Source of the DNA: an uncultured Candidatus Saccharibacteria bacterium
Lineage (GTDB): Bacteria > Patescibacteriota > Minisyncoccia > Phycocordibacterales > Phycocordibacteraceae
NCBI GenBank assembly: GCA_964507275.1
Contig: CAZDPG010000001.1
Coordinates: forward strand, 152,503-186,060
Length of the DNA stretch: 33,558 bases
Direction of reading: 5' to 3'
Below, piece after piece: positions 1 to 32,856 of this stretch (positions are counted from its first letter, which is position 1; every line of letters begins with the position of its first letter). The notes beneath the pieces were generated by a model. The model searched no databases, was not told the DNA's origin, and saw nothing but the letters and a program-made list of their open reading frames with translations. Made by a program: the position numbers and the translations under genes.

Positions 1-327
1 CCTAAGGGGCGCGACACAATTATCTTGAAGGGGCTCGCATACAATGGCGCGACTACAACGCTCTCGTCAACCAATCTCTCGTACAAGTGGAGTATCGGGA
101 AGAATGATTCGTATCAAGTATTCGCTTCGTACCTGCGCGCCGCTTCCACTTCGCTTGAGTCGCATTATCGTCCCAGGAGGGATAAGACAAATATCATGAC
201 CAGGCCGCGAGAGCTTGATGATTCTGGGAATGACGATTCGGATATGCGACCAAAGAGACAAGTGGTGCCTGGCATGGTGATACCATATGTGACAACAGAG
301 AAGGGGAGTTTACTCATTAAGTATTAA
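1..327 (+). CDS. 3' end of a hypothetical protein (frame open from window start)
   Basis: Frame 1 has no stop from position 1 to TAA at 325-327, and the next gene starts at 333. No family recognised. Confidence 0.45.
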   Translation, partial: PKGRDTIILKGLAYNGATTTLSSTNLSYKWSIGKNDSYQVFASYLRAASTSLESHYRPRRDKTNIMTRPRELDDSGNDDSDMRPKRQVVPGMVIPYVTTEKGSLLIKY

Positions 328-332
328 ACAAG

Positions 333-737
333 ATGAAAACGAAATTAATTCAGATTGTTCCTGCGCTGGCCGCGCTTTTAGGGGTTGCATTTCTTTACTT
401 TAGTAGATGGTGCACCGAAACAATCCCCTCCTGTTACGGTTCTTGGATGGACCATATATATTTCTATTTTACCCAACCACTCTACTTCTTCGCACTCTAC
501 TCGCTCCCGCTCGTAGTCATCCTCATCTTTGTTTCGCGTCAGGTCTTCAGCTCGTGGCTCCGGCTCGCCGCGTGGGCGCTCCCGCTTGCGTTCCTTTTCA
601 TTGCGACCCAGCCAGTCGTCGCTTCTTTCCTCTCTACTGATCGAGACGATGCCGCACGTCTCGCCGCCATTCTCTTCACCGTAATCTCCCTTATCCTCAT
701 CACCTGGAAGTCCATCGCTCTTCGCCGAGCGGGCTAA
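333..737 (+). CDS. Small multi-pass membrane protein (about 4 TM), unknown function
   Basis: 134 aa with four hydrophobic segments and an ATG start 5 nt after the upstream stop. Confidence 0.75.
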   Translation: MKTKLIQIVPALAALLGVAFLYFSRWCTETIPSCYGSWMDHIYFYFTQPLYFFALYSLPLVVILIFVSRQVFSSWLRLAAWALPLAFLFIATQPVVASFLSTDRDDAARLAAILFTVISLILITWKSIALRRAG

Positions 738-877
738 GGGGGAGTAGGTCTTGACCGCCCGCAGGGTATGCTGTAGTATCTCTCAAATCGACCCATCTGG
801 GCCGATTTCGCGTTTTGTCGCGGCCCCTAGGGATGGCGGCAAGGCATGTACATTCAATCGAAAAGAGGAGTTCCACC

Positions 878-1153
878 ATGCACAAGAAGTCCACGTTGCA
901 ACTGATGATCGCTGGCGTTCTGGCCCACGTTGCCCTGGCCAAGGAAATGACACCCGCTCACGGCACCGGCCTCGACGGCAAGACCAAGGTCAAGAGCCTG
1001 CATCTCGGCGAATCCGCTGACCATCCGGGCAAGGTCCTGGTCCAGGATTCCGAAGGCAACAACATGATCACGACCGCTGACGAGCTCTTCGTGGCTGCTC
1101 AGATCGCCGCCGAGCAGAAGGGCTTCCGCATCACGGCAACCAAGATCGGCTGA
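878..1153 (+). CDS. Hypothetical protein (91 aa, MHKKST...)
   Basis: GAGGAG precedes ATG 878. Codons are strongly GC3-biased and a terminator follows. Confidence 0.65.
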   Translation: MHKKSTLQLMIAGVLAHVALAKEMTPAHGTGLDGKTKVKSLHLGESADHPGKVLVQDSEGNNMITTADELFVAAQIAAEQKGFRITATKIG

Positions 1154-1204
1154 CCGGCATCAGCCGGCGGCAATCGCGGGTAGGTAACTCCCCGCACCCA
1201 CTAC

Positions 1205-1244
1205 AACAGGCGACCCCTCCAAAAGGTCTGCCTGTTTTTATTTT
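1205..1244 (+). terminator. Intrinsic terminator
   Basis: AACAGGC-GACC...GGTC-TGCCTGTT stem followed by a T-rich tail. Confidence 0.65.
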
Positions 1245-1273
1245 CATACCGCTCGAAGTGCTAGACTTTAGTT

Positions 1274-1669
1274 ATGACCACCTACAACTGGTATTCGACA
1301 CTAATCAAGCCCATATGGTCGCCGCCGGTTTGGGTGTTCGGTCCTGTGTGGACGATGCTCTACATACTCATCGCCATTTCGTTCGGGAAGGTATTCCTGA
1401 TGGCGGTGCAGAGAGAATTGCCGCTTACGGCCGCACTGCCGTTTGCACTGAACCTCGTCTTCAACCTCTCCTTCACCTACTTCCAGTTCACCCTCCAGAA
1501 TAATCTCCTCGCTGCCGCTGACATCCTGCTCTGTCTCATCACGCTCATCTGGGCAATGATCGCCATCTTTCCGCACAAGCGCTGGATCACCCTCATCAAC
1601 ATTCCGTATCTGGCGTGGGTCAGTTTTGCCACCGTGCTCCAGCTCACGATTACGTATCTGAATTGGTAA
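1274..1669 (+). CDS. tspO: TspO/MBR family tryptophan-rich sensory protein
   Basis: WY..L.KP.W.PP.WVFGPVWT.LY and PYLAWVSFA motifs. Confidence 0.92.
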   Translation: MTTYNWYSTLIKPIWSPPVWVFGPVWTMLYILIAISFGKVFLMAVQRELPLTAALPFALNLVFNLSFTYFQFTLQNNLLAAADILLCLITLIWAMIAIFPHKRWITLINIPYLAWVSFATVLQLTITYLNW

Positions 1670-1729
1670 AACACGGTGGATAGACTCTATTCCGCATAAG
1701 GGGTAGACTTTGCCTGAAAAGGGAGACGT

Positions 1730-2077
1730 ATGAAAAACATAGCCAATCTAACAAAAAGAATAGTTGCCTTCAGGAATGCTCGTGACTGGAAACAATTCCA
1801 TAATCCCAAAGATCTCTCACTGTCTCTTGTGCTTGAGGCTACGGAAGTCATGGAGCACTTCCAGTGGAAGAGTAAAGAAGAAATGGAGAAGTATATTGTT
1901 GAAGCAAAGGTAGAAATAGGGGAGGAACTCGCAGATGTTTTGTACTGGGTTCTTCTAATGAGTCATGATTTGAAAATCGACGTACTTGGTGCGCTTGATG
2001 AAAAAATGAAAAAGAACGAGGCAAAGTATCCAGTTGAAAAAGCGAAAGGAAAGCATACGAAATACAACAAGCTATAG
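1730..2077 (+). CDS. MazG-like nucleotide pyrophosphohydrolase (dCTP pyrophosphatase-like)
   Basis: RDWKQFHNPKDL...LEATEVMEHFQW...EELADV...KYP signature. Confidence 0.9.
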   Translation: MKNIANLTKRIVAFRNARDWKQFHNPKDLSLSLVLEATEVMEHFQWKSKEEMEKYIVEAKVEIGEELADVLYWVLLMSHDLKIDVLGALDEKMKKNEAKYPVEKAKGKHTKYNKL

Positions 2078-2080
2078 GTC

Positions 2081-4396
2081 ATGATTGTTTATCAATCTAC
2101 AAAATTAGGGTTTTTGAACGATGCCTCAAATGGGATTGAAGATATTGTCAGAGACCGGGTGAGAGAAAAACTGAATATTGATATCAAAGTCGGGAGTAGC
2201 GAATACAATTCCTGGAAGAATTCTTTGGGAGACGCGATGTATAAGGTGATGCAGACCGATAAGATTCCGGATGATTCGGGCGTTGCGATTGAGTATTCCA
2301 TTCCCCGCACGAAGAACCGCATCGATTTTGTCATTACAGGCGAAGATGGGGAGGGGAAGGAAAAGGTGGTCATCATCGAGCTTAAACAGTGGACCGATAT
2401 TGAAAAGACCGATAAGGATGCCATTGTCACGACCCGGTTTAAGAATGGCTTAAGCGAGGAGCTCCATCCCTCGTACCAAGCATGGTCATATGCCACCCTT
2501 CTTTATGGGTTTAACGCTACTGTGTACGAAGAGGGAGTCGGGCTAGAGCCCTGTGCCTATTTGCATAATCATGTCGATCAGGACGTAATTCTAAGCCCTT
2601 TTTACGCTGATTATTTACAGAAGGCCCCAGCTTTCTGTAAAGGAGACAAAGAGAAACTACAGGATTTCATTGCAAAGTTTGTCAAACATGGAGAAAAGAG
2701 AAATACGCTTTATCGAATTGATCACGGAGAAATCCGCCCATCGAAGAATCTCGCCGACAGTCTGGCGTCAATGCTCAAGGGTAATGAGGAATTCGTGATG
2801 ATAGACGAGCAAAAGGTCGTATACGAGATGGCACTTTCTCTGACGAAGAAGTCATCGAAAGCAAACAAGAACGTGCTTATTGTTGAGGGTGGACCAGGTA
2901 CCGGGAAATCGGTCGTGGCAATTAATCTTCTCGTTGCAATTACTAAGCTCGGACTTAATACACAATATGTGACGAAGAACGCTGCACCGCGTGGAGTGTT
3001 CGAGGCGAAGCTTGCGGGTACGTTTAAGAAGTCGCAAGTATCAAATTTCTTCACAGGATCTGGCTCTTTTGTTGGGGAAGAAGAGAGTGTATTCGATGCG
3101 CTTATTGTAGATGAGGCCCACCGGCTCAATAAGAAATCAGGAATGTTCAAAAATCTTGGTGAGAATCAAGTCAAAGAAATCATCAATGCGGCAAAATGCT
3201 CGATATTCTTCATAGACGAGGATCAAAAAGTCACTTGGCATGATATCGGGAAGAAAGAAGAAATTGAGTGGTGGGCCAGTAAAATTGGAGCACGAGTCCA
3301 GAATCTTAAACTCGAGTCACAGTTTCGTTGCAATGGTTCGGATGGTTACTTGTCTTGGCTCGACAATATCTTGTGCATAGAAGATACGGCCAATACCACC
3401 CTAGAAGGTATAGATTATGATTTCAAAGTCGTTGACTCTCCAAATGAATTGAGAGATATAATTTTCGAGAAAAATAAAGCCACGAATAAAGCACGTCTTG
3501 TCGCTGGATATTGTTGGGATTGGGTAAGTAAGAAGGACAAGAGCCTAAACGATATTGTTATCCCTGAATATGACTTTGGGATGAAGTGGAATCTTGCGAG
3601 CGACGGGAATGTCTGGATTATCTCGCCGAAGTCTGTAAACGAAGTCGGATGTATCCATACATGCCAAGGTCTCGAGGTCGATTATATAGGGGTTATCGTC
3701 GGGGATGATTTTGTTGTGCGCGATGGAGAAGTGATCACTAATCCAAGAAAACGAGCGAAGACCGATGCTTCATTGAAGGGGTATAAAAAAGAACTGAGGG
3801 AAGATCCAGACTTTGCTACCGAAAAAGCTGATGCGATTATAAAAAATACGTACCGAACTCTCATGACTCGAGGTATGAGGGGGTGCTACGTGTATTTCAC
3901 AGATAAAGAGACAGCAGACTACTTTAAGGACAGGATCGGTGGAATGGCGAGTTACCAGAAATACTTTACACCTGTTTTGTCGCCAATTACTGTAGATATG
4001 ATTCGCGTGCCGCTCGTTGGCTCTGCGCCTTGTGGCAACCCGCTGGTCGGTGAGCAAAATATCGAGGAGTACGTCTTGGTTGAAAAGTCTAAAATAAAAG
4101 CAGGTTTCAAATATTTTATACTTAGGGCCGAAGGTGATTCTATGAACCTCGCTGGTATAAATGACGGAGATTTCGTTCTCTGTCGTCTGCAGGAAAAAGC
4201 CGACACGGGCGATCGAGTCATTGCTCTCCTGGGTGGAGAAAACGTCACTATTAAAGAATATGGTCCACGAGAAGATGGGATTCGGTTGTTGATTCCCAAG
4301 AGTACAAATAAAAAGCACATGCCGATAACACCGGAGGAGGGCGACAGTGTGCAGGGTGTGGTTCAAGAAGTTATCGAACCAACCGATAGCCATTGA
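2081..4396 (+). CDS. DUF2075 (Schlafen group 3-like) nuclease-helicase with C-terminal S24 LexA/UmuD-type peptidase
   Basis: PD-(D/E)xK-like E..RID..IIELKQW, Walker A GGPGTGKS, Walker B IVDEAHRL, QFRC, HTCQGLE and LMTRG. The C-terminus has VPLVGSAPCGNP, GDSM and TIK. Confidence 0.88.
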   Translation: MIVYQSTKLGFLNDASNGIEDIVRDRVREKLNIDIKVGSSEYNSWKNSLGDAMYKVMQTDKIPDDSGVAIEYSIPRTKNRIDFVITGEDGEGKEKVVIIELKQWTDIEKTDKDAIVTTRFKNGLSEELHPSYQAWSYATLLYGFNATVYEEGVGLEPCAYLHNHVDQDVILSPFYADYLQKAPAFCKGDKEKLQDFIAKFVKHGEKRNTLYRIDHGEIRPSKNLADSLASMLKGNEEFVMIDEQKVVYEMALSLTKKSSKANKNVLIVEGGPGTGKSVVAINLLVAITKLGLNTQYVTKNAAPRGVFEAKLAGTFKKSQVSNFFTGSGSFVGEEESVFDALIVDEAHRLNKKSGMFKNLGENQVKEIINAAKCSIFFIDEDQKVTWHDIGKKEEIEWWASKIGARVQNLKLESQFRCNGSDGYLSWLDNILCIEDTANTTLEGIDYDFKVVDSPNELRDIIFEKNKATNKARLVAGYCWDWVSKKDKSLNDIVIPEYDFGMKWNLASDGNVWIISPKSVNEVGCIHTCQGLEVDYIGVIVGDDFVVRDGEVITNPRKRAKTDASLKGYKKELREDPDFATEKADAIIKNTYRTLMTRGMRGCYVYFTDKETADYFKDRIGGMASYQKYFTPVLSPITVDMIRVPLVGSAPCGNPLVGEQNIEEYVLVEKSKIKAGFKYFILRAEGDSMNLAGINDGDFVLCRLQEKADTGDRVIALLGGENVTIKEYGPREDGIRLLIPKSTNKKHMPITPEEGDSVQGVVQEVIEPTDSH

Positions 4397-4428
4397 CGAA
4401 CCCCCGTATCCGATCAAGGATCGGGTAT

Positions 4429-4632
4429 ATGGATACGGAGACCAAGAGGTTCCCTCAGCATGCCTGTCAGCATTGCGGGTCAGAACGCAAACTGGTCGAA
4501 ACGCTTATAGATGACGAATTCGTCTGGAACGAATATCGGCTACAATATGAGCCGAACAAGTTTACCGACGATTTCGAACATACTGGCAATGATCGCTGCG
4601 CCCAATGCGGAAGGGAATGGACGGGTATATGA
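4429..4632 (+). CDS. Small zinc-ribbon-like protein
   Basis: CQHC...CAQC pair in 67 aa. ATG 4429 is preferred over TTG 4393. Confidence 0.6.
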   Translation: MDTETKRFPQHACQHCGSERKLVETLIDDEFVWNEYRLQYEPNKFTDDFEHTGNDRCAQCGREWTGI

Positions 4633-4711
4633 AAATAGGGAGAAAAGTCTCCATAACGTGCTTAAAATGATTGATCTGTCTTGATAAGTTAGTAATGTTC
4701 ACAATCCACAT

Positions 4712-4739
4712 TTGACGTAGTGTTTCAGGCGTATATAAT
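4712..4739 (+). promoter_or_regulatory. Sigma70-like promoter of the mini-HTH/HEPN operon
   Basis: TTGACG-16 nt-TATAAT, about 40 nt upstream of ATG 4779. Confidence 0.7.
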
Positions 4740-4778
4740 GGGTACGCGGTCGGCTCATTTTACTTAACAATCAATTTT

Positions 4779-5000
4779 ATGATCAAGAATCCCTCTACAG
4801 ATACATCGAAAATTGAGAAAAAGATGAATATCATCATTTCTCTCCTCTCAAAAATCGCTAACAACGGTAGCGACTCTACCCTCAAGGAGCAAATACTCAG
4901 TCTTGCTTCTTTCGGCCTCTCGTCCTCAGAAATCGCGGAAATTGTGGGCAAGACAGTCGGTCACGTGAGCAAGGAGCTTTCGATTAACAAAAAAAGATAA
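4779..5000 (+). CDS. Mini HTH protein A (73 aa)
   Basis: Amphipathic N-terminal helix, then FGLSSSEIAEIVGKTVGHVSKELS. Confidence 0.85.
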   Translation: MIKNPSTDTSKIEKKMNIIISLLSKIANNGSDSTLKEQILSLASFGLSSSEIAEIVGKTVGHVSKELSINKKR

Positions 5001-5010
5001 CATATAACAT

Positions 5011-5226
5011 ATGGAAAATAGCGACATCCTCAAAGAGATCTCAAAGAAACTCAGCATCTTAATTGCTCTAGAATTGCAGGGCGAGAATGGAGTGGAAGTC
5101 AAAGAAAATGTAATAAAGCTCACTCGTTTTGGTCTCGGCACATCGGAGATTGCCGATATTCTCGGTACCACCCCGGGTACGGTACAGGTCGCCAAGGCCC
5201 GTATTAAGAAGTCTAAGGCAAAATAG
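5011..5226 (+). CDS. Mini HTH protein B (71 aa)
   Basis: ISKKLSILIAL helix, then FGLGTSEIADILGTTPGTVQV. Clearly similar to protein A. Confidence 0.85.
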   Translation: MENSDILKEISKKLSILIALELQGENGVEVKENVIKLTRFGLGTSEIADILGTTPGTVQVAKARIKKSKAK

Positions 5227-5228
5227 TC

Positions 5229-5411
5229 ATGGAAACAAAAAGTCTCGAAGACAAAATCGATAGACTACAGACATCCATTGATACTCTGGCTCTGATAGAG
5301 TTTTGCAAACTCGGAGCAAAACGAGATCAGGTCCGAGATGTATTTGGCACCCTCGATAACAACTTATTTGCGAAAGTGAATAAGATTATTAATCCGAAGG
5401 ATAAGAAATAA
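5229..5411 (+). CDS. Mini HTH-like protein C (60 aa, divergent)
   Basis: Same layout (helix, then LGAKRDQVRDVFG, basic tail) with 2-nt gaps to both neighbours. Confidence 0.75.
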   Translation: METKSLEDKIDRLQTSIDTLALIEFCKLGAKRDQVRDVFGTLDNNLFAKVNKIINPKDKK

Positions 5412-5413
5412 TC

Positions 5414-5605
5414 ATGACGAACGAAAATACAAAGACTGGGAAGAAACTCTCGATAGACGATCGCGTCATCGACATCCTCGAGCGCTTTGCGGCGGCGAGC
5501 CTGTATATGACTACAGAACTCAAACAGATCGATATTGCAAAGGTTCTTGGAATGGGGAATGATCGCATTAATCAAATCCTGAAAGGGATAAGTAAACAAA
5601 AATAA
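5414..5605 (+). CDS. Mini HTH protein D (63 aa)
   Basis: LKQIDIAKVLGMGNDRINQILK HTH pattern. Confidence 0.82.
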   Translation: MTNENTKTGKKLSIDDRVIDILERFAAASLYMTTELKQIDIAKVLGMGNDRINQILKGISKQK

Positions 5606-5606
5606 T

Positions 5607-5768
5607 ATGGCAAGAAAAAAGAGCGAAAAGCTAGAACCATTGGAGGAGATTAAACGTCTGCTCGTTCTTGGGCTTGTTAATCAAGGTGTGAAAGGTAAAG
5701 ATATTGCTGCAATGCTTGAAGTCGACCCAGCGGTTATTAGTCGGTTGATTTCGTCGACCAAAAAATAG
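5607..5768 (+). CDS. Mini HTH protein E (53 aa; not in ORF track)
   Basis: Hand translation MARKKSEKLEPLEEIKRLLVLGLVNQGVKGKDIAAMLEVDPAVISRLISSTKK fills the gap between D and the HEPN gene exactly. Confidence 0.82.
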   Translation: MARKKSEKLEPLEEIKRLLVLGLVNQGVKGKDIAAMLEVDPAVISRLISSTKK

Positions 5769-5771
5769 AAT

Positions 5772-6473
5772 ATGGCACGACGCCTCGACCCAAAATTATT
5801 GGAGAAGCTTGCAAAGAAAATCGGCAAGCCAGTGAAATATACGCGTGAGCAGAATTCTAAACGCGCCACAAGAACGGGTGTCTCTTCTGAGGCGTATTTT
5901 CTACATTGGTTGAAGGAGGAAAAAATTGGTTTTCAGACGTATAAACGGTCGTTACCAACGGATGTTCAAAACGAAGCGAGAGTGCTTTCTGTGTCTTCTA
6001 GGACGGCCCCCACGACTCAAGATAATCATGTAGTGCGTAGTGAGACTATCACTGCCTCGTCGCGATACATAGACTTATTGGAGATAGTTCAAGACGATGA
6101 ACTTCGAGATAGATGTGCAGATCTTATAAAACGACCGAGGAATCACGATCGAGTTTTTCGCGAAGCGACAACGCTTCTTGAGCATCGCATTAAAACCCTG
6201 AGTGGTATTACTCAGAGGATGAACCCACAAGCATTGATTGGTAAGGTAATTGCGCCTAATCCAACACTAGCGATTTTAGTTGTTAGTAGTGAGCCGAGCG
6301 AACAGGAAGGCTTCTTTAAGATTTGTTCAGGAATTGAAGCGGCGTTTCGAAACAGAACCCATCATGAGGTTTCAAATAGACTCACCCGAAACGACGCGAT
6401 AAAGTTTTGTGGTTTTGTTGATTCGCTCCTTTTGATTCTCGCTAATGCAGAAGTGCATCAGGAACGTATTTAA
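5772..6473 (+). CDS. TIGR02391/Ymh-like HEPN-domain protein with basic helical N-terminal domain
   Basis: VFREA..LLE.RI..LSG, SEQEGF, G...AFRNRTHH (RNxxxH HEPN motif) and DA...GFVD.LL. Confidence 0.8.
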   Translation: MARRLDPKLLEKLAKKIGKPVKYTREQNSKRATRTGVSSEAYFLHWLKEEKIGFQTYKRSLPTDVQNEARVLSVSSRTAPTTQDNHVVRSETITASSRYIDLLEIVQDDELRDRCADLIKRPRNHDRVFREATTLLEHRIKTLSGITQRMNPQALIGKVIAPNPTLAILVVSSEPSEQEGFFKICSGIEAAFRNRTHHEVSNRLTRNDAIKFCGFVDSLLLILANAEVHQERI

Positions 6474-6514
6474 TTCCATGCAGTGAGATAAATAAAGAAA
6501 TCAACGATTTTGGA

Positions 6515-6554
6515 AAGAGCAGAATGACAGGACTAGTTCTGTCATTCTGCTCTT
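6515..6554. repeat. Long palindrome, copy 1
   Basis: AAGAGCAGAATGACAG-gactagtt-CTGTCATTCTGCTCTT. Confidence 0.9.
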
Positions 6555-6635
6555 GGCGAGGCAGGAAGGGCGAGAGAAGGGATGCCCGCCGCCGCTGCGG
6601 CGGGTGAGGTTGGGATGGACGCGCGCGGACAAATT

Positions 6636-6670
6636 TAAAAACGCCGCTTCGTATCGAAGTGGTGTTTTTA
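6636..6670. terminator. Bidirectional intrinsic terminator
   Basis: AAAAACGCCGCTTCG-tat-CGAAGTGGTGTTTTT between convergent genes. Confidence 0.7.
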
Positions 6671-6677
6671 ATTTGCT

Positions 6678-6983
6678 TTAGACGAGTTCGATTCTCTTGC
6701 CGAAGACGGCAGCCATCTTACCAAGCGTGTCGAGAGAGATACCTCGCGTGCCGCTCTCGATACGAGCGATGACGGACTGTGGCATCCCGACTCGATCAGC
6801 GACCATCTTCTGTGTGAGTCGCTTTGCCGATCGGAGCTCGCGGAGCTTCTGAGCGAATCGAAGTTGAACGAGCTCCTCGTCATAGGCCTGCTTGAACACC
6901 GCGCTTTTAGATGATGCGTGGACTACCTGCTCGAGAGAGTGCCATTTGAGTTTTATTTCCTTTTTAGTTTTTGCGCTTTTCAT
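6678..6983 (-). CDS. XRE-family HTH protein (HigA-like antitoxin)
   Basis: FKQAYDE...LRELR...LTQKMVADRVGMPQSVIARIESG...SLDTL. Start reassigned to ATG 6983. Confidence 0.88.
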   Translation of the reverse strand: MKSAKTKKEIKLKWHSLEQVVHASSKSAVFKQAYDEELVQLRFAQKLRELRSAKRLTQKMVADRVGMPQSVIARIESGTRGISLDTLGKMAAVFGKRIELV

Positions 6984-7059
6984 GGTGGTTGTGTGGTGTA
7001 TTTTTATTTCGCGCTTTTTCAATCTCACGTAGGGGTGTCTTCTGATTCTTTTTGAGAAT
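6964..7059 (-). pseudogene. C-terminal remnant of a RelE/HigB (Gp49-like) toxin
   Basis: Hand translation ILKKNQKTPLREIEKARNK...* matches the KK.QKTP..EI..A tail of this family. It has no start codon and overlaps the antitoxin start. Confidence 0.7.
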
Positions 7060-7086
7060 ATAGCAAAACTGCTATATTACTGTCAA
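7057..7086 (-). promoter_or_regulatory. TA promoter with palindromic operator
   Basis: Minus strand TTGACA-18 nt-TATATT (TGn extended), overlapped by AATATAGC-n6-GCTATATT (7057-7078). Confidence 0.65.
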
Positions 7087-7099
7087 TGCCGGCTGGGGA

Positions 7100-7135
7100 T
7101 AGCAGAATGACAGGACTCGTCCTGTCATTCTGCTA
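7100..7135. repeat. Long palindrome, copy 2
   Basis: TAGCAGAATGACAGGAC-tc-GTCCTGTCATTCTGCTA, same core as 6515-6554. Confidence 0.9.
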
Positions 7136-7168
7136 GGGGTGAGGCGGGGGGGGGTAGAATAAGACCAT

Positions 7169-7504
7169 ATGGCGACGCGGCAGGAGACGATTGATTTCAT
7201 CCTCGACCAGGTGGCGGGCGCGGGCTTCGCCCGCGCCCGCAAGATGTTCGGCGAGTATGCGCTCTACTTCGACGGGAAGGTCGTCGCGCTCGTGTGCGAC
7301 GATCAACTCTTCGTGAAGATCACCGAGCCGGGTAAAGTGTTCGTCGGCGACCGCTACGAAGAAGGGTGTCCGTATCCTGGAGCAAAGCCATGGATGCATA
7401 TCAGCGAAGAGATGCTCGACGACCGAGCCTGGCTCTCCGGGCTCGTCCGTGTGACGGCCGATGCTCTGCCCCTGCCGCAGCCGAAAAAGAAGAAGCGGGT
7501 GTGA
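7169..7504 (+). CDS. TfoX/Sxy N-terminal domain protein
   Basis: RKMFGEYALY.DGK..ALVCDD.LFVK...YPGAK signature. Confidence 0.9.
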   Translation: MATRQETIDFILDQVAGAGFARARKMFGEYALYFDGKVVALVCDDQLFVKITEPGKVFVGDRYEEGCPYPGAKPWMHISEEMLDDRAWLSGLVRVTADALPLPQPKKKKRV

Positions 7505-7522
7505 TGCGGTACAATTTGAGTA

Positions 7523-8497
7523 ATGAAGAAGAAATCAGATAAGCCTGTCGTCATATATCAGACCAGGAGCGGAGCGATCGAGCTACGCGGTGATGCGTCG
7601 TACGAGACAATCTGGGCGACACTCGACCAGATAGCGGAAGTCTTTGGTCGTGACAAGTCGGTCGTCTCCCGCCACCTCAAGAATATCTTTCTCGAAGGGG
7701 AGCTGACGCGGAATGCAGCTGTTGCAAAAAATGCAACAACTGCCGCAGACGGTAAGGTATATCAGGTTGAGTATTATAATCTCGACGCCATCCTTTCGGT
7801 CGGATATCGCGTCAATTCGAAGACGGCGACGCAGTTCCGCCAATGGGCGACCAAGACGCTCCGCGAGCATATCACGAAGGGATACACGCTCAATCGCAAA
7901 CGGATCGGCAAGAACTACGACGCGTTCATGAGGGCGGTGGCGGATGTACAGGCGCTTCTTCCTGAGCACGTCGCGCTCGACCCGAAGGGCGTCCTCGAGC
8001 TAATCAAGGAATTCGCGTCGACGTGGGTATCGCTCGACGCGTACGACAAGGAGTCGCTCGCCGTCGTCGGCTCTACCAGGAAGTCGGTCAAACTCACGGG
8101 TGCCGAGCTGACCGAGGCTATAACGCATCTCCGCTCCGATCTCTTGAAGAAAGGCGAAGCGACGGATATCTTCGCGCACGAGCGGGCCGCGGGGAGCATC
8201 GAGGGTATCGTCGGCAACGTGATGCAGTCGTTCGGCGGGCGCCCTGTCTATGCGACCGTCGAAGAGAAAGCGGCGCACCTTCTGTACTTCATGGTGAAGA
8301 ATCATCCCTTTACCGACGGCAACAAGCGGTCGGGCGCTTTCGCATTCGTGTGGTTCTTGCGCAAGGCGGGGAGCAAGGGGCGACGTAATGTGAACCCTGC
8401 TGCGCTTACTGCACTTACGCTCCTCATCGCCGAGAGCGACCCGAAGAAGAAGGAGCAGATGGTGGCGCTTGTCACCCAGGTGCTCAGGGTGCGCTAG
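7523..8497 (+). CDS. RhuM/Fic (Doc-like) family protein
   Basis: RhuM-type YNLDAILSVGYRVNS..ATQFRQWAT, plus Fic motif HPFTDGNKRSG. Confidence 0.92.
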   Translation: MKKKSDKPVVIYQTRSGAIELRGDASYETIWATLDQIAEVFGRDKSVVSRHLKNIFLEGELTRNAAVAKNATTAADGKVYQVEYYNLDAILSVGYRVNSKTATQFRQWATKTLREHITKGYTLNRKRIGKNYDAFMRAVADVQALLPEHVALDPKGVLELIKEFASTWVSLDAYDKESLAVVGSTRKSVKLTGAELTEAITHLRSDLLKKGEATDIFAHERAAGSIEGIVGNVMQSFGGRPVYATVEEKAAHLLYFMVKNHPFTDGNKRSGAFAFVWFLRKAGSKGRRNVNPAALTALTLLIAESDPKKKEQMVALVTQVLRVR

Positions 8498-8506
8498 GAT
8501 AGGGGT

Positions 8507-8762
8507 ATGAGAATCATATTCCTCGACACGGGACCGAAGAGACCGCACTCGACGCAATGACCCTGCTGTCGTCGCGTCCACTCCTCTTCACCACGCTCCG
8601 CTTCGGCAAATACAGCGGCAAACGGTTGGAGCATATCGTCACGAGTGACTCGAGCTACATCGAATGGCTCCTCAAGCAGAAGGAGAGAGCCCTTCCGAAG
8701 AAGAGGACTGGATCTATACGTTTAAGCACTATCTGAACCCGGCCCCCGATGCAGCGCCCTAA
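8507..8762 (+). pseudogene. Internally deleted, frameshifted DnaQ/exonuclease X-like gene
   Basis: MRIIFLDT (start of the ExoI motif) is joined out of frame to LRFGKYSGKRL...DSSYIEWLL. A further frameshift gives EEDWIYTFKHYL. Confidence 0.7.
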
Positions 8763-8803
8763 ATGGGGCTATACTTATAGCATTACCACTTACTACGTCA
8801 TTC

Positions 8804-9178
8804 ATGGAAATTTCACTCATCGCAGCAAAGATATTGGGAACGTATTTCATCATCAGCGGGCTGTTTCTTCTTCTGCGCGGGAAGACCGTTCCGCACCTGC
8901 TCAAGGACTTTTTCGATCATCCTGCAATCATGTATCTCACAGGTGCCATATTGATATTCTTGTCTTCGCTCATGCTTCTCCAAGGAAACATCTGGGATAG
9001 TTCGTGGCGCACCGTCATCACCATATTCACTTGGCTCGTCTTCGTGAAGGGCGCGGCATATATCCTCGCCCCAGAACTGCTCCGCTCGCTGGTGAGCAGG
9101 AAGCTGCTCAAGGCGGTCAACCTGTTCGGTCTCATCACTCTCGTCGTAGGAGTGTCGCTACTCTCCTTCGGGGCTTAA
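8804..9178 (+). CDS. Small 4-TM membrane protein
   Basis: Hydrophobic 124 aa with a W..W..VIT...W...KG pattern. Confidence 0.8.
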   Translation: MEISLIAAKILGTYFIISGLFLLLRGKTVPHLLKDFFDHPAIMYLTGAILIFLSSLMLLQGNIWDSSWRTVITIFTWLVFVKGAAYILAPELLRSLVSRKLLKAVNLFGLITLVVGVSLLSFGA

Positions 9179-9185
9179 CCAAAAT

Positions 9186-9845
9186 ATGTCTGGAGTGAAG
9201 CTCAGAGACGGCCTCTTCGCCATTCTTGCTCTAGGACTCGCCTTCGCTCTCCTTGCCTACGAGCCACGGGAGAACCTCGACCAGAGCCAGAGCATATCTG
9301 ATGGGACGATCACGTTTTTCTATGCACCGGAGTTCGGACTTGCAGTCACTCCGGAGCAAATACTTGTCCGCTCTTACATTCCGCCCTGCGACGAAGACTT
9401 CGATTACTGTCTCTACCTCATAAGCGGCGAGTACCAGGGTACCAACTTCGAGAGCGCGGGCCTGCGCATCAAGGAACGCGCTGATCTAGGTTCGCCCGAA
9501 GCGTGCCTCAATACGCCACCTGAAGGATACACGGTTTTCGAGCCGGAGATACATACCGGACAAGAGTATGCGACGAGCGTCTTCGCTCCTGTAGGGGGAG
9601 CGGGAGCCGGTCATTATGCGAGAGGCGCTCTCTATCGGCTCTTCTACGATAGTCGCTGTTACGAATTCGAGACGCGCATCGGCGAGTCCCAGTTCGCTAA
9701 CTACCCGCTGGGCGCAATCAAGGAGTTCACAGACCAAGACCGGACGGAAGTCATGACACATCTTCTTGAGGTGTTGAACAGCATCTCACTCCCTGATGGC
9801 AGGAAGAATCTCTTTGCACCATCCGGCTCCATTCTGGTATCCTAA
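9186..9845 (+). CDS. Membrane-anchored exported protein, unknown function
   Basis: N-terminal TM segment, paired cysteines and a GAGAGH...YR motif. Confidence 0.75.
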   Translation: MSGVKLRDGLFAILALGLAFALLAYEPRENLDQSQSISDGTITFFYAPEFGLAVTPEQILVRSYIPPCDEDFDYCLYLISGEYQGTNFESAGLRIKERADLGSPEACLNTPPEGYTVFEPEIHTGQEYATSVFAPVGGAGAGHYARGALYRLFYDSRCYEFETRIGESQFANYPLGAIKEFTDQDRTEVMTHLLEVLNSISLPDGRKNLFAPSGSILVS

Positions 9846-9849
9846 GAAT

Positions 9850-10350
9850 ATGAAAGAACAAGCAGCAATCATGGGAGCGGTTGCAATAGCGGTCGTCGGC
9901 GCGCTCTGGATGGTGAACGTGCGCACCGTGCAAGCGCCCGGTCAGGCGGCGTGCACGATGGAAGCGAAGCTCTGCCCGGACGGCACGGCCGTCGGACGCA
10001 CCGGTCCGAATTGCGAATTTGCCGCGTGCCCGACAAGCGGACCAATCACGCTCGAAGCTCGGATAGGGCAGGAGGTGAGTGGGCTCGGCGTCCGCATCAT
10101 CCCTACGGAGCTCTTGGAAGACAGTCGCTGTCCGGTCGACGTGGTGTGCATACAGGCAGGGACGGTGCGCGTGCGTGCGCGCCTCATAAGCGGTCTCGGA
10201 GAGGCGAATCAGGAATTCAAACTCAACCAACCGATCACGACCGAGACGGAAGAAGTCACTCTCATACAGGTCATGCCGCAACCTTTGGCAGGCGTCGAGA
10301 CGAAGGACAGCGCCTATGTCTTCCGGTTCGAGGTATCAAAACGAAAATAA
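9850..10350 (+). CDS. Exported Cys-rich protein
   Basis: TM segment, then CTMEAKLCPDG..VGRTGPNCEFAACP and DSRCP.DV.CIQAG. Start reassigned to ATG 9850. Confidence 0.8.
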   Translation: MKEQAAIMGAVAIAVVGALWMVNVRTVQAPGQAACTMEAKLCPDGTAVGRTGPNCEFAACPTSGPITLEARIGQEVSGLGVRIIPTELLEDSRCPVDVVCIQAGTVRVRARLISGLGEANQEFKLNQPITTETEEVTLIQVMPQPLAGVETKDSAYVFRFEVSKRK

Positions 10351-10356
10351 TCTCGT

Positions 10357-10839
10357 ATGACTGGCTTGCGCACGAAAGATTTGCTCCTCATACAATTTCT
10401 CGCACTCCTCGGCGGGACGGTCTTCGCGTGGTCGAAGCTCATACCGCAGCTCAGCAACTTCCTCGCTACCTACGGGACATTCCTCCAGTTCTCCGACACG
10501 AGCATCCCGAACCCGCTCCTTACGGCCTGCCTGTACGGATCGACTGCGTTCATCGTCGCGCTGTTCTGGGCGCTTGCGCTCTTCCAGAATCCCTCCTATC
10601 GAAGCGAGCGCTATCTGCGGAATTTCCTCATTTTCGCCATCGTCTTCGCAGCATCAGTGGTGTCGTATGAGGCCGTGCTCTACTACGGGCTCGTCGAAGC
10701 TGGCTCAGTGCCGGTGACCTGCTCACCCGGGGTGCACCCGCTCGCGACGCCGTGCTTCTTCGGCATGCTCTTCTTCATCGCGGCATTCGCTACTGCCGAT
10801 TCCGCAACGCGCCGCCTGAAACAGGACACGGTAGATTAG
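10357..10839 (+). CDS. 4-TM membrane protein with cysteines (possibly VKOR/DsbB-like)
   Basis: Four hydrophobic helices and three cysteines. The family assignment is weak. Confidence 0.65.
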   Translation: MTGLRTKDLLLIQFLALLGGTVFAWSKLIPQLSNFLATYGTFLQFSDTSIPNPLLTACLYGSTAFIVALFWALALFQNPSYRSERYLRNFLIFAIVFAASVVSYEAVLYYGLVEAGSVPVTCSPGVHPLATPCFFGMLFFIAAFATADSATRRLKQDTVD

Positions 10840-10870
10840 TACTCGCGCGCACTAGGGTATAGTGAGGAAC

Positions 10871-12547
10871 ATGACTCAGGCTGAAGCGCTCACCATACTC
10901 AAGACCGGGGCGAACGTATTCCTGACGGGGGAGCCAGGGAGCGGCAAGACGCACACGATAAACGCGTTCGTCGATTGGCTACGCTCGGCTGGCATCGAAC
11001 CCTCCATCACGGCTGCTACCGGCATCGCGGCGACGCACGTGAGCGGCATGACGCTCCACTCCTGGAGCGGTATCGGCATCGCTGAATCGCTTTCAGAAGC
11101 CGATGTCGATCGCATCGCCGGCAAAGAACATATCGCCAAGCGTATCGCGAAGGCGAAAGTGCTCATCATCGAGGAGATATCAATGCTCTCGGCAAGCACG
11201 TTCGAGATGGCAGATGCCGTCTGTCGTGAGGTGCGGCGCATCGACAAGCCGTTCGGTGGACTCGTCGTGGTGCTTGTGGGCGACTTCTTTCAGTTGCCAC
11301 CGGTCTCTCGCTCGCGTGATGCGCGTTTCGCGTACACCTCGCCCGTGTGGCGCGATCTGAACATGATCACGTGCTACCTGACCGAGCAGTACCGGCAGGA
11401 CGATAGCGACTTCCTGAGCGTACTCTCGGCGATACGCTCGGGCGAAGTGGAAGAACTCCACTATGAGGAACTGATGAGGCGGCATACCGCCGCGTCAGAG
11501 TTACCACTCTCCGCGCCGAAGCTCTTCTCACATAACGCTGACGTCGACCGCATCAACGCCGAGGAACTCGCGAAGCTCCCCGGCACGGCGAAGAAATTCA
11601 CTATGAGTTCGAAGGGTAAGGATACGCTCGTCGACGGACTCATACGCGGATGCCTCTCGCCCGAGACATTGGAGCTCAAGGAAGGAGCAACGGTTATGTT
11701 CACCAAAAACTCTCCGCAGGGACGGTTCGTGAACGGTACGCTCGGCACCGTGACCGGCTGGGACGCGGGCGGCATGCCGATCGTAGAAACGAAGGACGGG
11801 CTCACAATCGCCACCGAACCGATGGAGTGGCAGCTCGAAGAGCAGGGGAAAGTGAAAGCGAGCATCGCGCAGATACCTCTGCGGCTCGCGTATGCGATGA
11901 CGGTGCACAAGAGCCAGGGGATGAGTATGGATGCAGCCATCATGGATCTTTCGAAGGCATTTGAATACGGGCAGGGCTATGTCGCGCTCAGTCGCGTGCG
12001 GCGGCTCTCGGGAGTGTATCTCACCGGTCTCAACCAGCGCGCGCTCGAAGTGCATCCGGACATTCTCGAGAAAGACCGAGACTTCCGTGCGGCATCAGAC
12101 GCCGCGCGCGATGCGTTTGAAGCGATGGATGTAAATGAGGCGATTGGCATGCAGAAGAAATTCGTGAAGGCGCTTGGCGGCGCGTGGCCAAGCGAAGCGG
12201 TCAAAAACTTACGGGCCAAGGAAGAAGGGAAGAAGACTGTCGGCAATCTGCCGGGGCGGCTCGCCGAGACGCTCCAAGCGGCACGCGATGCCAAGAGCTT
12301 GAAAGAGGTTGCGAAGGCTCGTGCGCTCACAGTTTCGACTATCGTGAAGCACTTGGAAGAGCTTGCCGAGATAGGGAAGCTCTCGCGCATCGACTTCGCG
12401 CATCTCGTGCCGATGGACATCGTCGACGAGATACACGAGGCACTCGCCGCCGACACGAGCGACCGTCTCTCGCCGATATTTCACGCGCTCAGCGGCCGCT
12501 ACTCCTTCGAGACCATCCGCCTCGTACGGCTCATGCGCTCCCGGTAG
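10871..12547 (+). CDS. PIF1-like SF1B helicase with C-terminal HTH
   Basis: NVFLTGEPGSGKT, TGIAA, TLHSWSGIG, GDFFQLPPV, YRQ, NGTLG, PLRLAYAMTVHKSQG and GQGYVALSRV. Confidence 0.92.
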   Translation: MTQAEALTILKTGANVFLTGEPGSGKTHTINAFVDWLRSAGIEPSITAATGIAATHVSGMTLHSWSGIGIAESLSEADVDRIAGKEHIAKRIAKAKVLIIEEISMLSASTFEMADAVCREVRRIDKPFGGLVVVLVGDFFQLPPVSRSRDARFAYTSPVWRDLNMITCYLTEQYRQDDSDFLSVLSAIRSGEVEELHYEELMRRHTAASELPLSAPKLFSHNADVDRINAEELAKLPGTAKKFTMSSKGKDTLVDGLIRGCLSPETLELKEGATVMFTKNSPQGRFVNGTLGTVTGWDAGGMPIVETKDGLTIATEPMEWQLEEQGKVKASIAQIPLRLAYAMTVHKSQGMSMDAAIMDLSKAFEYGQGYVALSRVRRLSGVYLTGLNQRALEVHPDILEKDRDFRAASDAARDAFEAMDVNEAIGMQKKFVKALGGAWPSEAVKNLRAKEEGKKTVGNLPGRLAETLQAARDAKSLKEVAKARALTVSTIVKHLEELAEIGKLSRIDFAHLVPMDIVDEIHEALAADTSDRLSPIFHALSGRYSFETIRLVRLMRSR

Positions 12548-12650
12548 GGCATTGACATTACACTACATGTGTGATAAAAACGACATCAGGTTCTGACATG
12601 TCGGCATCCGCCGGTATTCGTTTTCTGACAAAGAAGAAAAGGAGAGAAAA

Positions 12651-13166
12651 ATGAACAGTCTGGCATTGGCCCTCTCAAGGGCTGGTTTCGCACCGCGTTC
12701 TGCTCCAACCCCGGAATGGATTCGTTTCCATGAGGGAGAGGAGTTCGTCGTCATCTTCGGCTGTCCGCGGCACAAGGTCCTCGACGGCATCCAGGTGCTT
12801 CCCATGGGCATATGCGCCCGCGGTGAACAACCGCCCGCCGAAGACATCCTCCGTTTCAGCAATGCGAAGGTCGACCTCGACGGTCTCCTCGCGCGCTGTA
12901 CGGTCGAGGGTATCAACGTCCGCGAAGTGAGCGAGGGCTTCTGCGAAGTCTTCATCAACTGTACCGCCTCGCGCAAGAGCGAGGGCTTCAAGCACTGGGC
13001 CGGCCTGTACGAGGACTTCGTGCGAAGCTCGCTTCCCCATACGTGGGCGAAAGCGACGTTCAAGCGTCACGACGGTCGTACCTCGCTGAAGCTGCGCAAC
13101 TCATGCGCCGCCGAGGATACGGCGACGAAGTTGTTCTTCGCGATCGGGCCGTCCATCGCGCACTAG
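12651..13166 (+). CDS. Hypothetical protein
   Basis: AAGGAG SD, GC3-biased codons, TTGACA upstream at 12552 and a terminator downstream. Confidence 0.7.
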   Translation: MNSLALALSRAGFAPRSAPTPEWIRFHEGEEFVVIFGCPRHKVLDGIQVLPMGICARGEQPPAEDILRFSNAKVDLDGLLARCTVEGINVREVSEGFCEVFINCTASRKSEGFKHWAGLYEDFVRSSLPHTWAKATFKRHDGRTSLKLRNSCAAEDTATKLFFAIGPSIAH

Positions 13167-13181
13167 CGGGGAATCCGCGCC

Positions 13182-13218
13182 AAAGGGAGTCAGCAGTAGC
13201 TGGCTCCCTTTATTATTT
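13182..13218. terminator. Bidirectional intrinsic terminator
   Basis: AAAGGGAGTCAGC-agta-GCTGGCTCCCTTT between convergent genes. Confidence 0.7.
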
Positions 13219-13962
13219 TAGGAGCGTTGTCATGAGGAGTATCGTGTCAGCAGGATTCTTGACGCTCTTCGTCTCCGCTTCAGTCTTAAAGACGGCTTCA
13301 TCGTTGCCGCCCGGCGTGAGCTCATCGCCCACATAGAGCGTATCTCGCTCATGCAGATGGAGCCGCTCGCAGAGTTGTCGGAGGCCGTAGGCCTTGTCGA
13401 CACCGCGCTTCGTGACGTCGATCGATGTAGCCCCGCCGAAGCTGACCAGGAATTCCGGCAGCTTCGCGGCAATTACTTCCTGAAGCGCATGACGCTTCGC
13501 GTGGTCGGGATCCCACTCTTTCTTCAATGCAATCGGGGCGTGTTGCCCCAGCGCCGAGAGTGTCACCTGCCCACCACGATACTCGATGCGCTCGCCCCAT
13601 GCTGGCAGCGAGAAGTCGATGATACCAGTTTCTTCTGTCGCCTCTCGCATCGCCGTTCCTATAGCATGCGCGTCTTTTTCGGAGAGCCGTTCCTCATAAA
13701 TCTTCTTCCATGTGCCAGAATGGTACTCGTAGAGCGCGGCACCGCTCGTCGGGAGGAGGTAGAGATTCGAGAGATTCGTGGCGTGCGGAAGGCGTGCCAC
13801 TATTTGTTTTAAAAATTGTTCGAGAGCACCACCGGAAATGACCGCAACCGGCATACGAGCAAGAAGTTTCGCGACGAGTGCTGCCATCTCGCCCGTGAGC
13901 GACTGTTTGCTCTCGGCGAGCGTGCCATCGAGATCGAATACAATGAGATTAGGTATTTTCAT
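13213..13962 (-). CDS. HAD-IIB hydrolase, phosphomannomutase-like
   Basis: FDLDGTL, VISGG, IEYRG.Q, GGATSIDV..GVDKAY and VGD..PGGND. Confidence 0.88.
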   Translation of the reverse strand: MKIPNLIVFDLDGTLAESKQSLTGEMAALVAKLLARMPVAVISGGALEQFLKQIVARLPHATNLSNLYLLPTSGAALYEYHSGTWKKIYEERLSEKDAHAIGTAMREATEETGIIDFSLPAWGERIEYRGGQVTLSALGQHAPIALKKEWDPDHAKRHALQEVIAAKLPEFLVSFGGATSIDVTKRGVDKAYGLRQLCERLHLHERDTLYVGDELTPGGNDEAVFKTEAETKSVKNPADTILLMTTLLK

Positions 13963-29959: not shown

Positions 29960-30123
29960 CTGGCTGTCCCTCCAAGATAGGTTTCAGAGAAATGAGCAGT
30001 AACTCAACCCGACTTTCTATATCACGATATACAGCTCCTGTCGACTTCGTTCCTGCACTCTACTTTGCAGTAGGGGGAGTTTAGGCTAGAATGCCCTGGT
30101 GTCCCTTCGGGGGCACAAAACAT

Positions 30124-31993: not shown

Positions 31994-32162
31994 GTCTTAT
32001 AGTATAACTCCAAAAGCCAAGGCTTGAGTAGGAAATACCCTGCCTTAACAGAAGTAAAATTTAGTAATAAAGCGACAACTTTGTTGGCGCCTCCGTTAGG
32101 AGAAGTGTATTTAATTTGTTGTTTTATATGTTGTATATATCTGGTATAGGTTGGCCAAAACA

Positions 32163-32516: not shown

Positions 32517-32544
32517 GCTGACCGATCCTCCCTTTGAAATATTC

Positions 32545-32712: not shown

Positions 32713-32856
32713 CACTATTAAAATTAATTCTTAAAAACTTATTATAAAAAATCTTATTTCCCTAAATAAAACTCCTGATTAAATCTCTCCGTGCCAAACC
32801 CCATTTCTATATTTCTATTTCGTCCTGAAGCACTTTCGTCTCAAAATGTGCACTCC

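Follow-up and report, generated by a model that had tools for sequence, protein, structure and literature searches.

Here, we identify a compact operon of six genes as a candidate modular defence system in an uncultured Candidatus Saccharibacteria bacterium. The operon lies at 4712-6473 on the plus strand of the stretch of DNA that was analysed, hereafter the window (33,558 nt; contig CAZDPG010000001.1 of assembly GCA_964507275.1, positions 152,503 to 186,060), and all positions refer to the window unless another locus is named. Its first five genes, A to E, encode proteins of 53-73 amino acids (aa) of the helix-turn-helix (HTH) kind, and its last gene, F, encodes a 233-aa effector with a C-terminal HEPN domain. 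Small genes of the same families recur beside homologues of F, and the N-terminal domain of F recurs in front of other effector domains. We suggest, giving the idea about an even chance, that the locus is a conserved, unnamed modular conflict system, i.e., an abortive-infection or toxin-antitoxin-like defence in which the small HTH proteins and the N-terminal domain would serve as sensor and adaptor. An earlier interpretation made from the letters and open reading frames (ORFs) alone, the sequence-only reading, had proposed that the five small proteins form a hetero-oligomeric antitoxin or sensor restraining a HEPN RNase. The observation behind it is confirmed and the interpretation is partly supported, with HEPN emerging as one of several exchangeable effectors. 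What is new here is an N-terminal domain and mini-HTH families for which Pfam has no model, in a gene architecture for which we found no name; defence with modular effectors is as a kind already known.

All five small ORFs bear the marks of genuine genes. Gene A (4779-5000; 73 aa) and its paralogue B (5011-5226; 71 aa) are of one type, hereafter A/B type; the divergent, mini-HTH-like gene C (5229-5411; 60 aa) and gene D (5414-5605; 63 aa) are of a middle type; gene E (5607-5768; 53 aa) is of an effector-adjacent type, and F follows at 5772-6473. In comparisons with orthologues, all six genes are under purifying selection, the proportion of nonsynonymous differences (pN) being far below a saturated proportion of synonymous differences (pS): for A-E together, pN is 0.03-0.38 and pS 0.75-1.0, and for F, 0.12 and about 0.8. 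Orthologues of A-E are found in other loci at E-values of 1e-12 to 1e-30. Those of gene A, in L006, L009, L010, L001, and L015, give pN of 0.16-0.28 versus pS of 0.76-0.86; those of gene C, in L006 (E 1.3e-26) and L015 (E 1.2e-14), give 0.14-0.20 versus 0.75-0.78; and gene E gives 0.03-0.26 versus 0.75-1.0. It could be argued that these short frames exist by chance, as part of an untranslated leader ahead of the HEPN gene, given that they are 53-73 aa long and that none passes a Pfam cut-off. These selection and conservation data, together with the 168 database clusters of the middle family and the concentration of family matches next to the effector described below, already refute this explanation, and we consider its probability negligible.

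To define families, ORFs of at least 35 aa were gathered by single-linkage phmmer from A-E at E<1e-5. This yielded 216 ORFs, two of which were discarded because they overlap the HEPN gene. Louvain clustering sorted the remaining 214 into families of 69, 49, 46, 32, 8, 5, 3, and 2 members, labelled fam0 to fam7 in size order. Genes A and B belong to fam3, C to fam6, D to fam5, and E to fam1; fam2 and fam4 are close relatives of fam3. None of the window's genes falls into fam0, the largest family, which occupies the middle position in more distant loci.

Members of these families form arrays next to the effector. We compared two genome loci and the best 80 of 152 metagenome loci, defining the effector zone as the plus strand from -1600 to +650 relative to the HEPN gene. 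Family hidden Markov models (HMMs) match 204 of 576 small ORFs within this zone versus 21 of 2324 in the remainder of these loci. Upstream sequence of 700 nt or more was available for 60 non-duplicate loci; of these, 55 have one or more mini-HTH genes upstream of, and on the same strand as, the HEPN gene, 48 have at least two, 33 at least three, and 13 at least four, with five such genes in three loci (0, 1, 2, 3, 4, and 5 genes in 5, 7, 15, 20, 10, and 3 loci, respectively). These counts include the window and near-identical kin, e.g., L001 and L007, and leave out L003, which equals the window, and five loci with identical HEPN DNA (L012, L020, L024, L043, and L085); de-duplication drops overlapping ORFs, so that the arrays in L009 and L010 are undercounted. 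A mini-HTH gene lies directly downstream of the effector in 18 of the 64 loci with at least 300 nt downstream. A recurrent order is apparent, with A/B-type genes at the 5' end, C/D-type genes (fam0, fam5, and fam6) in the middle, and an E-type gene beside the effector. This E-type gene precedes the effector in the clade to which the window belongs and follows it in a more distant clade, e.g., 2 0 [H] 1, with digits for families and H for the HEPN gene. The window reads 3 3 6 5 1 [H], and L015, whose HEPN protein is 50% identical, reads 3 3 6 1 [H]. Thus, small ORFs are conserved beside homologous effectors, as the sequence-only reading would have it. Of the conserved five-gene order that it envisaged, a loose order of types recurs, and the number does not, with counts from 0 to 5; what is conserved is a loose order grammar, and five is incidental. 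As a separate observation, L019 (2161-4855) has its HEPN gene after a type I methylase gene and lacks the usual array; a 64-aa winged-HTH gene lies upstream and a 114-aa MarR-like HTH gene downstream of the HEPN gene.

The small genes appear, from profile comparisons, to form one superfamily for which Pfam has no model. Direct paralogy is significant for A and B only (46% identity over 50 aa, with phmmer E-values of about 5e-11 to 9e-11 when five sequences were searched), and the remaining small proteins are linked solely via profile-profile comparison of their orthologue families. In these comparisons, hhalign probabilities are 97-99% among fam2, fam3, and fam4; 93-97% for fam0 versus fam1, fam2, fam3, or fam5, with 96.7% for the family of gene D; 83-95% for fam1 versus fam2, fam3, or fam5 and for fam5 versus fam2 or fam3; and 90% for the gene C family, fam6, versus fam0. 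Family members have a common plan of a hydrophobic first helix, an HTH of the G-x3-[DE]-I-[AR]-x2-[LV]-G type, and a Lys/Arg-rich tail. This bears out the single HTH plan that had been proposed for the 53-73 aa proteins with C as a divergent member, and gene C indeed has no HTH match in Pfam. The best Pfam matches of the other four are all below cut-off: Sigma70_r4_2 (PF08281) for B (E 1.8e-5; 24.8 bits versus a cut-off of 25.7) and A (E 0.014), HTH_23 for E (E 6.5e-4), and HTH_3 for D (E 0.069). Scans of A-E against NCBIfam, PHROGs, and PADLOC gave nothing better than these Pfam matches. Each mini-HTH protein, with lengths of 50-95 aa across arrays, is predicted to be essentially a single three- or four-helix HTH domain resembling sigma region 4 or LuxR.

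Against solved structures, the A/B profile finds region 4 of extracytoplasmic function (ECF) sigma factors (SigR, 5fgm, E 4.4e-4), the E-family profile finds region 4 of FliA (6pmi, E 4e-4), and the middle-family profile matches CRP weakly (E 0.016-0.03). The proteins are 53-73 aa long and have no region 2, and A and B match region 4 below cut-off; A-E are best described as region-4-like domains and not as sigma factors. Such similarity would fit a guard mechanism in which the small proteins mimic sigma region 4, phage sigma-blockers bind these decoys, and a tethered effector is released or activated as a result. The best known-fold similarities of the A/B and E families are indeed to sigma region 4 (SigR, sigma-H, sigma-E, and FliA), B also has its Sigma70_r4_2 match, and several diverged paralogues would suit decoys of several sigma factors. 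We nevertheless consider this scenario very improbable, since all these similarities are below family cut-offs, CRP and LuxR HTH domains score nearly as well as sigma region 4, and the scenario is pure inference.

F divides, according to an alignment of its homologues, into a conserved N-terminal domain of ~66 aa and the HEPN domain, with a variable linker between them. The HEPN domain (residues 108-220; 6093-6431) matches PF09509, Hypoth_Ymh (50.5 bits, cut-off 25; E 2.3e-13), which places F in this family; of the 98 F homologues in a collection of 5.8 billion proteins, 97 have a precomputed PF09509 match. The corresponding NCBIfam model TIGR02391 (hypoth_ymh) gives 24.5 bits, below its cut-off of 39.45, and more distant F homologues are labelled TIGR02391 by JGI. 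The HEPN motif that had been spotted at 6348-6365 encodes RNRTHH, residues 193-198, and an alignment of 57 homologues shows no variation at R193, H197, or H198, as in the catalytic Rx4-6H motif of HEPN domains. From this intact Rx4H motif, the predicted output of F is RNA cleavage. The N-terminal domain (residues 1-68; 5772-5975), defined by an alignment of 47 domains, has no Pfam model; it is weakly similar to DUF2240 (PF09999; 16 of 47 sequences at E<=0.1, best 2.4e-4) and Dredd_2nd (6 of 47), and no AbiJ_NTD family is among the Pfam matches of the 47 sequences at E<=0.1. A feature-based lead to AbiJ_NTD5 (0.82) lies in the chance range. The whole-length profile of F has no relative in the Protein Data Bank (PDB). 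Profile matches in the PDB to 8cwy, 8cws, 5cwb, and 8vd6 were rejected because these are designed repeat proteins whose scores sum weak repeats (E 0.1-0.9 for each repeat of 8vd6).

The N-terminal domain is found on a range of effectors. Its profile, built from 47 sequences, matches 180 clusters among 1.84 billion representative proteins at E<=1e-3. Among the 150 matches listed, the domain starts within the first 30 residues in nearly all, and no protein is longer than 276 aa. Pfam scans of the 56 of these proteins with at least 184 aa identified, fused to the N-terminal domain, Hypoth_Ymh in 25, HEPN_Swt1 in eight, a CAP12/Pycsar-type TIR domain in three, TIR_2 in three, a pPIWI-associated nuclease (pP_pnuc_1) in two, and GGDEF, HEAT, DUF5677, and RIF5_SNase_2 in one each; a Cas10-palm match, its protein not specified, was also counted once. 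The match of P0238 is spurious, being due to a low-complexity repeat. The TIR protein P0108, which has the N-terminal domain, matches plasmids through its TIR part only, and the single long match (Hymenobacter, H10; 24.8% identity) was rejected as a relative because its annotation contains no mini-HTH array.

Searches of 401 sampled genomes of the window's phylum link the domain and the array in both directions. The N-terminal-domain profile matches five of these genomes, two of which, G042 and G205, had not been found with F; the match in G323, a 28-aa frame with two stop codons, is unreliable. In G042, an A/B-type and a middle-type gene precede a 132-aa protein in which a linker connects the N-terminal domain to a hydrophobic or transmembrane helix at the C terminus. 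In G205, the array comprises two genes of the A/B type and one of the middle type, and it is followed by a gene for a 231-aa protein in which the N-terminal domain is joined to a domain without a Pfam match; a further search of its class, covering 16 genomes already in the set, added nothing. Conversely, the middle-family profile matches nine of the 401 genomes, and its four strongest matches, G000, G013, G042, and G205, are exactly the four genomes with a reliable N-terminal domain. In four other genomes, the matches are weak and correspond to unrelated TrpR/YerC-like proteins. In G071 (L106, 2561-5248), the order is fam4, fam2, fam1, a 301-aa unknown protein, a fam0/5 gene, and a 308-aa NucS_C-like PD-(D/E)XK nuclease, with a gene for a large serine recombinase alongside, and neither the 301-aa protein nor the nuclease has the N-terminal domain. 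Altogether, these matches indicate that the array travels with variable effectors, mostly but not solely via the N-terminal domain. The effector swapping that had been anticipated thus exists, and it takes place on the N-terminal domain of the HEPN protein, which is combined with HEPN, TIR, nuclease, GGDEF, or transmembrane parts.

In seven close loci (L001, L006-L010, and L014), a second protein of 191-198 aa is encoded between the E-type and the HEPN genes, e.g., at 5421-5999 of L001; the window has no such gene. The N-terminal-domain profile matches six of these proteins, the exception being the L010 copy, which aligns with the others only from about residue 30. A C-terminal domain was recognisable in none of the seven, and feature-based leads to TCAD2 and AbiTii (0.84) for the 192-aa protein lie in the chance range. 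This protein may be a co-effector or an adaptor.

ORF and promoter scans confirm that one promoter precedes six co-oriented genes, separated from A-B to E-F by gaps of 10, 2, 2, 1, and 3 nt, all on the plus strand. The promoter is of the sigma-70 type (TTGACG-16 nt-TATAAT, 4712-4739, +) and agrees with the consensus at 11 of 12 positions. A match of this kind is by itself little proof because the scan found six promoter-like sites when 5.2 were expected from shuffled sequence, i.e., no enrichment. More informative is its conservation: the -35 and -10 elements and an 18-nt leader 5' of gene A (TTACTTANCANTCAATTT, 4760-4777, +), which ends 1 nt before the ATG of gene A, are kept in the alignment of six distinct loci. 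The exact leader pattern is present in eight of 94 collected loci, i.e., these six and two copies of the window, and once in the window. Because promoter and leader are kept despite saturated synonymous sites, they point to a functional promoter and a cis element, candidates for the latter being an operator or a translation signal. A single transcription unit is the best explanation of this layout. Downstream of F, the fold of 6474-6680 (z-score -5.4) has three strong hairpins in the 200 nt that separate F from a convergent gene: one with an 18-bp stem and no T-run (6515-6554, +), possibly a terminator or module boundary, a second at about 6584-6604, and a terminator-like one with a T-run (6635-6671, +). 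The hairpins coincide with a rise in GC content at the end of the island described below. A scan of 4000-7300 found no Rfam RNA family.

The conserved promoter and leader bring up another explanation, namely that the small proteins are ordinary transcription factors or a repressor cascade, akin to C proteins or to phage CI/Cro/CII, that time or limit expression of the effector and leave the effector protein untouched, the N-terminal domain sensing separately. All five proteins are minimal HTH domains nearest to the DNA-binding domains of sigma region 4, LuxR, and CRP, and sequence is kept at the DNA level as operators would be. Consistent with this explanation are also the variable copy number, the array beside effectors without the N-terminal domain in G071, and the fact that the N-terminal domain is unrelated to the small proteins. 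On the other hand, three to five paralogous regulators for one promoter and effector far exceed what is known of controller systems, tight translational coupling (gaps of 1-3 nt) and a recurring order of types would rather be expected of subunits produced at a set ratio, and the E-type gene stays beside the effector whether upstream or downstream of it. We therefore regard purely transcriptional control as rather unlikely, and continue to favour a conflict system in which the small proteins would be sensor components.

The operon is in a defence-gene setting. Among 131 flanking ORFs of at least 200 aa in the non-duplicate loci, the commonest Pfam domain is SLFN_AlbA_2 (six), followed by N6_Mtase, Methylase_S, ResIII, SWI2_SNF2, DEAD, HNH, and Eco57I (four each) and N6_N4_Mtase, EcoEI_R_C, and GmrSD_N (three each). 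As judged by these domains, the neighbours are mostly restriction-modification and defence genes, i.e., the setting is that of a defence island. In the window, the GC content is 42-45% at 2001-6500, which holds the operon, versus 55-59% in most of the rest of the window. Synteny gives no island borders, as a DNA comparison with G143, a genome of the same family, found nothing that matches window positions 1-14000. A second low-GC stretch is seen at 30001-33000 (38-48%), the rest of the window having 51-59%, mostly 55-59%.

F was found in three of the 401 genomes, G000 included, indicating that its distribution is sporadic. The window's genome (669 kb in two contigs, 98.4% complete) is small, and the closest loci in named genomes are in a Candidatus Paceibacterota and a Candidatus Saccharibacteria assembly, which makes a host from the Candidate Phyla Radiation probable. 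The contigs of some distant relatives measure 2.27 Mb (L032), 734 kb (L012), 401 kb (L077), and 242 kb (L052). The 2.27-Mb contig is longer than every listed genome of the phylum to which the window belongs (0.5-1.5 Mb), so that the system probably also occurs outside this phylum. The window's DNA was detected in nine DNA runs of groundwater metagenomes and in no RNA run among the runs listed.

This distribution and setting also bear on the possibility that the locus is an addiction module, i.e., a type II-like toxin-antitoxin system that stabilises a mobile island, with the HTH proteins as labile antitoxins or autorepressors, HEPN as the toxin, and no dedicated role in phage defence. Small HTH genes 5' of a toxin-type RNase in one autoregulatable operon, a low-GC island, sporadic occurrence, and the serine recombinase adjoining the array of G071 would all be expected of such a module. 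However, exchange of TIR domains, a transmembrane tail, and a pPIWI-associated nuclease behind a common adaptor is the pattern of immune systems, the neighbours are dominated by restriction-modification and defence genes and not by integrases or transposases, and the small proteins have short basic tails, without the long extension through which type II antitoxins usually bind their toxin. Thus, we consider an addiction module without a defence role unlikely, and we return to the defence reading.

We suggest that the mini-HTH proteins bind DNA, including their own promoter and leader, and jointly form the regulatory or sensing part of the system. The N-terminal domain would couple the effector to this part and hold it inactive until infection causes a disturbance that frees or gathers the effectors. 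Candidates for the disturbance are foreign DNA, a phage protein that binds the HTH domains, or the loss of labile small proteins when host transcription stops. The effector would then act after pairing or clustering, and the outcome would be growth arrest or death of the infected cell. Characterised HEPN RNases must pair their domains to act, and TIR domains and single transmembrane tails likewise need assembly; release or clustering is, therefore, an activation step that would fit all of the swapped domains. A bolder version of the proposal is that the locus represents a new class of immune system without an enzyme in its sensing part, in which unfused mini-HTH proteins assemble with the adaptor-tagged effector on invading DNA or as decoys, effectors are thereby brought together, and the N-terminal domain is a new adaptor comparable to death-fold domains or effector-associated domains (EADs). 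We put this version forward tentatively and hold it to be doubtful.

Several observations weigh against the proposed defence system in its sensor and adaptor form. First, a copy number of 0 to 5 does not fit a complex of fixed stoichiometry; together with the G071 array beside nucleases without the N-terminal domain, it argues against a fixed five-subunit complex, and G071 also implies that the N-terminal domain is not the sole link between array and effector. Second, the array may not be obligatory, given the five of 60 loci without an upstream mini-HTH gene, the seven with one only, and L018, which has no array and looks like a solo effector. Third, many loci are kin, and all but three were gathered via the effector, so that the counts overstate independence. 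Fourth, the N-terminal domain has no detectable homology to the mini-HTH families (hhalign probability <5%), leaving a like-with-like interaction between them unsupported, and fused or longer forms of the middle family were not found, which is weak evidence. Finally, no F relative was found among 49 pattern matches in viral contigs, and F has no tblastn match on plasmids.

Several further genes surround the operon. Upstream, a MazG-like gene (1730-2077, +) is followed after 3 nt by a gene (2081-4396, +) for a 771-aa fusion of a Schlafen-group-3/DUF2075-type helicase (PF09848, E 1.9e-104) and a C-terminal LexA-like S24 peptidase (E 1.1e-18), which overlaps by 4 nt with a 79-aa zinc-ribbon ORF (4393-4632, +). 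The helicase-peptidase matches PDC-S41, Nhi, and AbiO of PADLOC weakly and could be a defence gene in its own right, with a self-cleavage switch. Because it and the zinc-ribbon gene are absent from related loci, we count both among the neighbours and exclude them from the system. Downstream, an XRE-type HTH gene (6678-7028, -) is convergent with F, and genes for a TfoX_N-domain protein (7169-7504, +), a RhuM plus Fic/DOC protein (7523-8497, +), and a PIF1-like helicase with a C-terminal HTH_40 domain (10862-12547, +) follow. In the parts of Anantharaman et al. 2013 available to us (PMC3710099), RhuM-DOC proteins are discussed as toxins in restriction-modification neighbourhoods.

If the defence reading is correct, the operon represents a widespread, unannotated defence-type module, with 180 clusters for the adaptor domain and 168 for the middle mini-HTH family, in groundwater, soil, and sediment metagenomes. 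The module would also be present in very small genomes, probably those of Candidate Phyla Radiation bacteria. Most of its genes encode fewer than 75 aa, have no Pfam coverage, and are at best "hypothetical protein" in automatic annotation, as are the members of the middle family where they are named at all. It would further provide a new adaptor domain, through which one control unit is connected to killing domains as different as two HEPN families, two TIR families, a nuclease, and a membrane tail, and a control unit made solely of several minimal HTH proteins. At about 1.8 kb, the operon is compact and directly testable in a laboratory host.

The claim that no named system has this architecture stands in comparison with PADLOC-DB v2.0.0, which has no name for the locus: A, B, and D have no matches there, and those of C (REase_II, 0.015) and E (CasR, 9.6e-4) are weak and unrelated. 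Nor did we find a description of small-HTH arrays with a Ymh-type HEPN protein or with this N-terminal domain in the main texts of the literature covered, supplements being outside that scope. HEPN-MNT (HepT-MntA) systems combine a HEPN RNase toxin and a small neutralising partner in an operon of the two-gene type. The locus described here is similar in having a HEPN RNase and small partner genes in an operon; it differs in that the partners are three to five HTH proteins, none of A-E having a nucleotidyltransferase match in Pfam, NCBIfam, or PADLOC, and in that the HEPN domain is of another family. Restriction-modification C proteins are small HTH proteins encoded just 5' of a dangerous nuclease gene and act on their own promoter; these systems have a single such protein and a DNA nuclease, whereas the present locus has several diverged paralogues in an array, and its effector is exchangeable and carries an adaptor. 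CBASS, Pycsar, Thoeris, and the accessory proteins of type III CRISPR systems use exchangeable TIR, HEPN, nuclease, and transmembrane effectors. The same repertoire is found here, including the CAP12/Pycsar TIR domain, but the operon contains no cyclase or other signal-making enzyme and no SAVED, CARF, or SLOG domain.

Among systems described in the literature, PD-Lambda-3 is weakly similar to F, with residues 116-201 of its HEPN part matching PADLOC model PD-Lambda-3_B at E 2.3e-5; no operon protein matches PD-Lambda-3_A or any other PD-Lambda-3 model, so that the two components of that system are not both present. In the parts of the sources available to us, PD-Lambda-3 is stated to act by abortive infection (PMC13190303) and is listed with a PD-(D/E)XK nuclease domain (PMC10952713); in contrast to the locus here, it has no mini-HTH array. 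Proteins of the Ymh HEPN family (PF09509/TIGR02391) are described, in the text of PMC3710099 as far as accessible, as solo proteins or fusions in restriction-modification neighbourhoods, with paraMORC, AbiJ-NTD1/2, and AbiTii as N-terminal partners. The C-terminal domain of F is a member of this family, above the Pfam cut-off and with an Rx4H motif, and the reported setting fits the flanking genes here, whereas the N-terminal domain of F matches none of these partners; arrays of small HTH genes are not mentioned in that text, a scope that excludes the gene neighbourhoods of its Additional file 1. Finally, EADs of NTPase-centred conflict systems are described, in the accessible parts of Kaur et al. 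2020 (PMC7159879), as small helical N-terminal modules that are present on many toxic domains and on adjacent proteins. The present locus differs in having mini-HTH proteins as partners and no vWA-MoxR, STAND, or other NTPase core. The likeness, one of description and not of sequence, is that here, too, an N-terminal module is common to varied toxic domains and, in seven loci, to two adjacent proteins.

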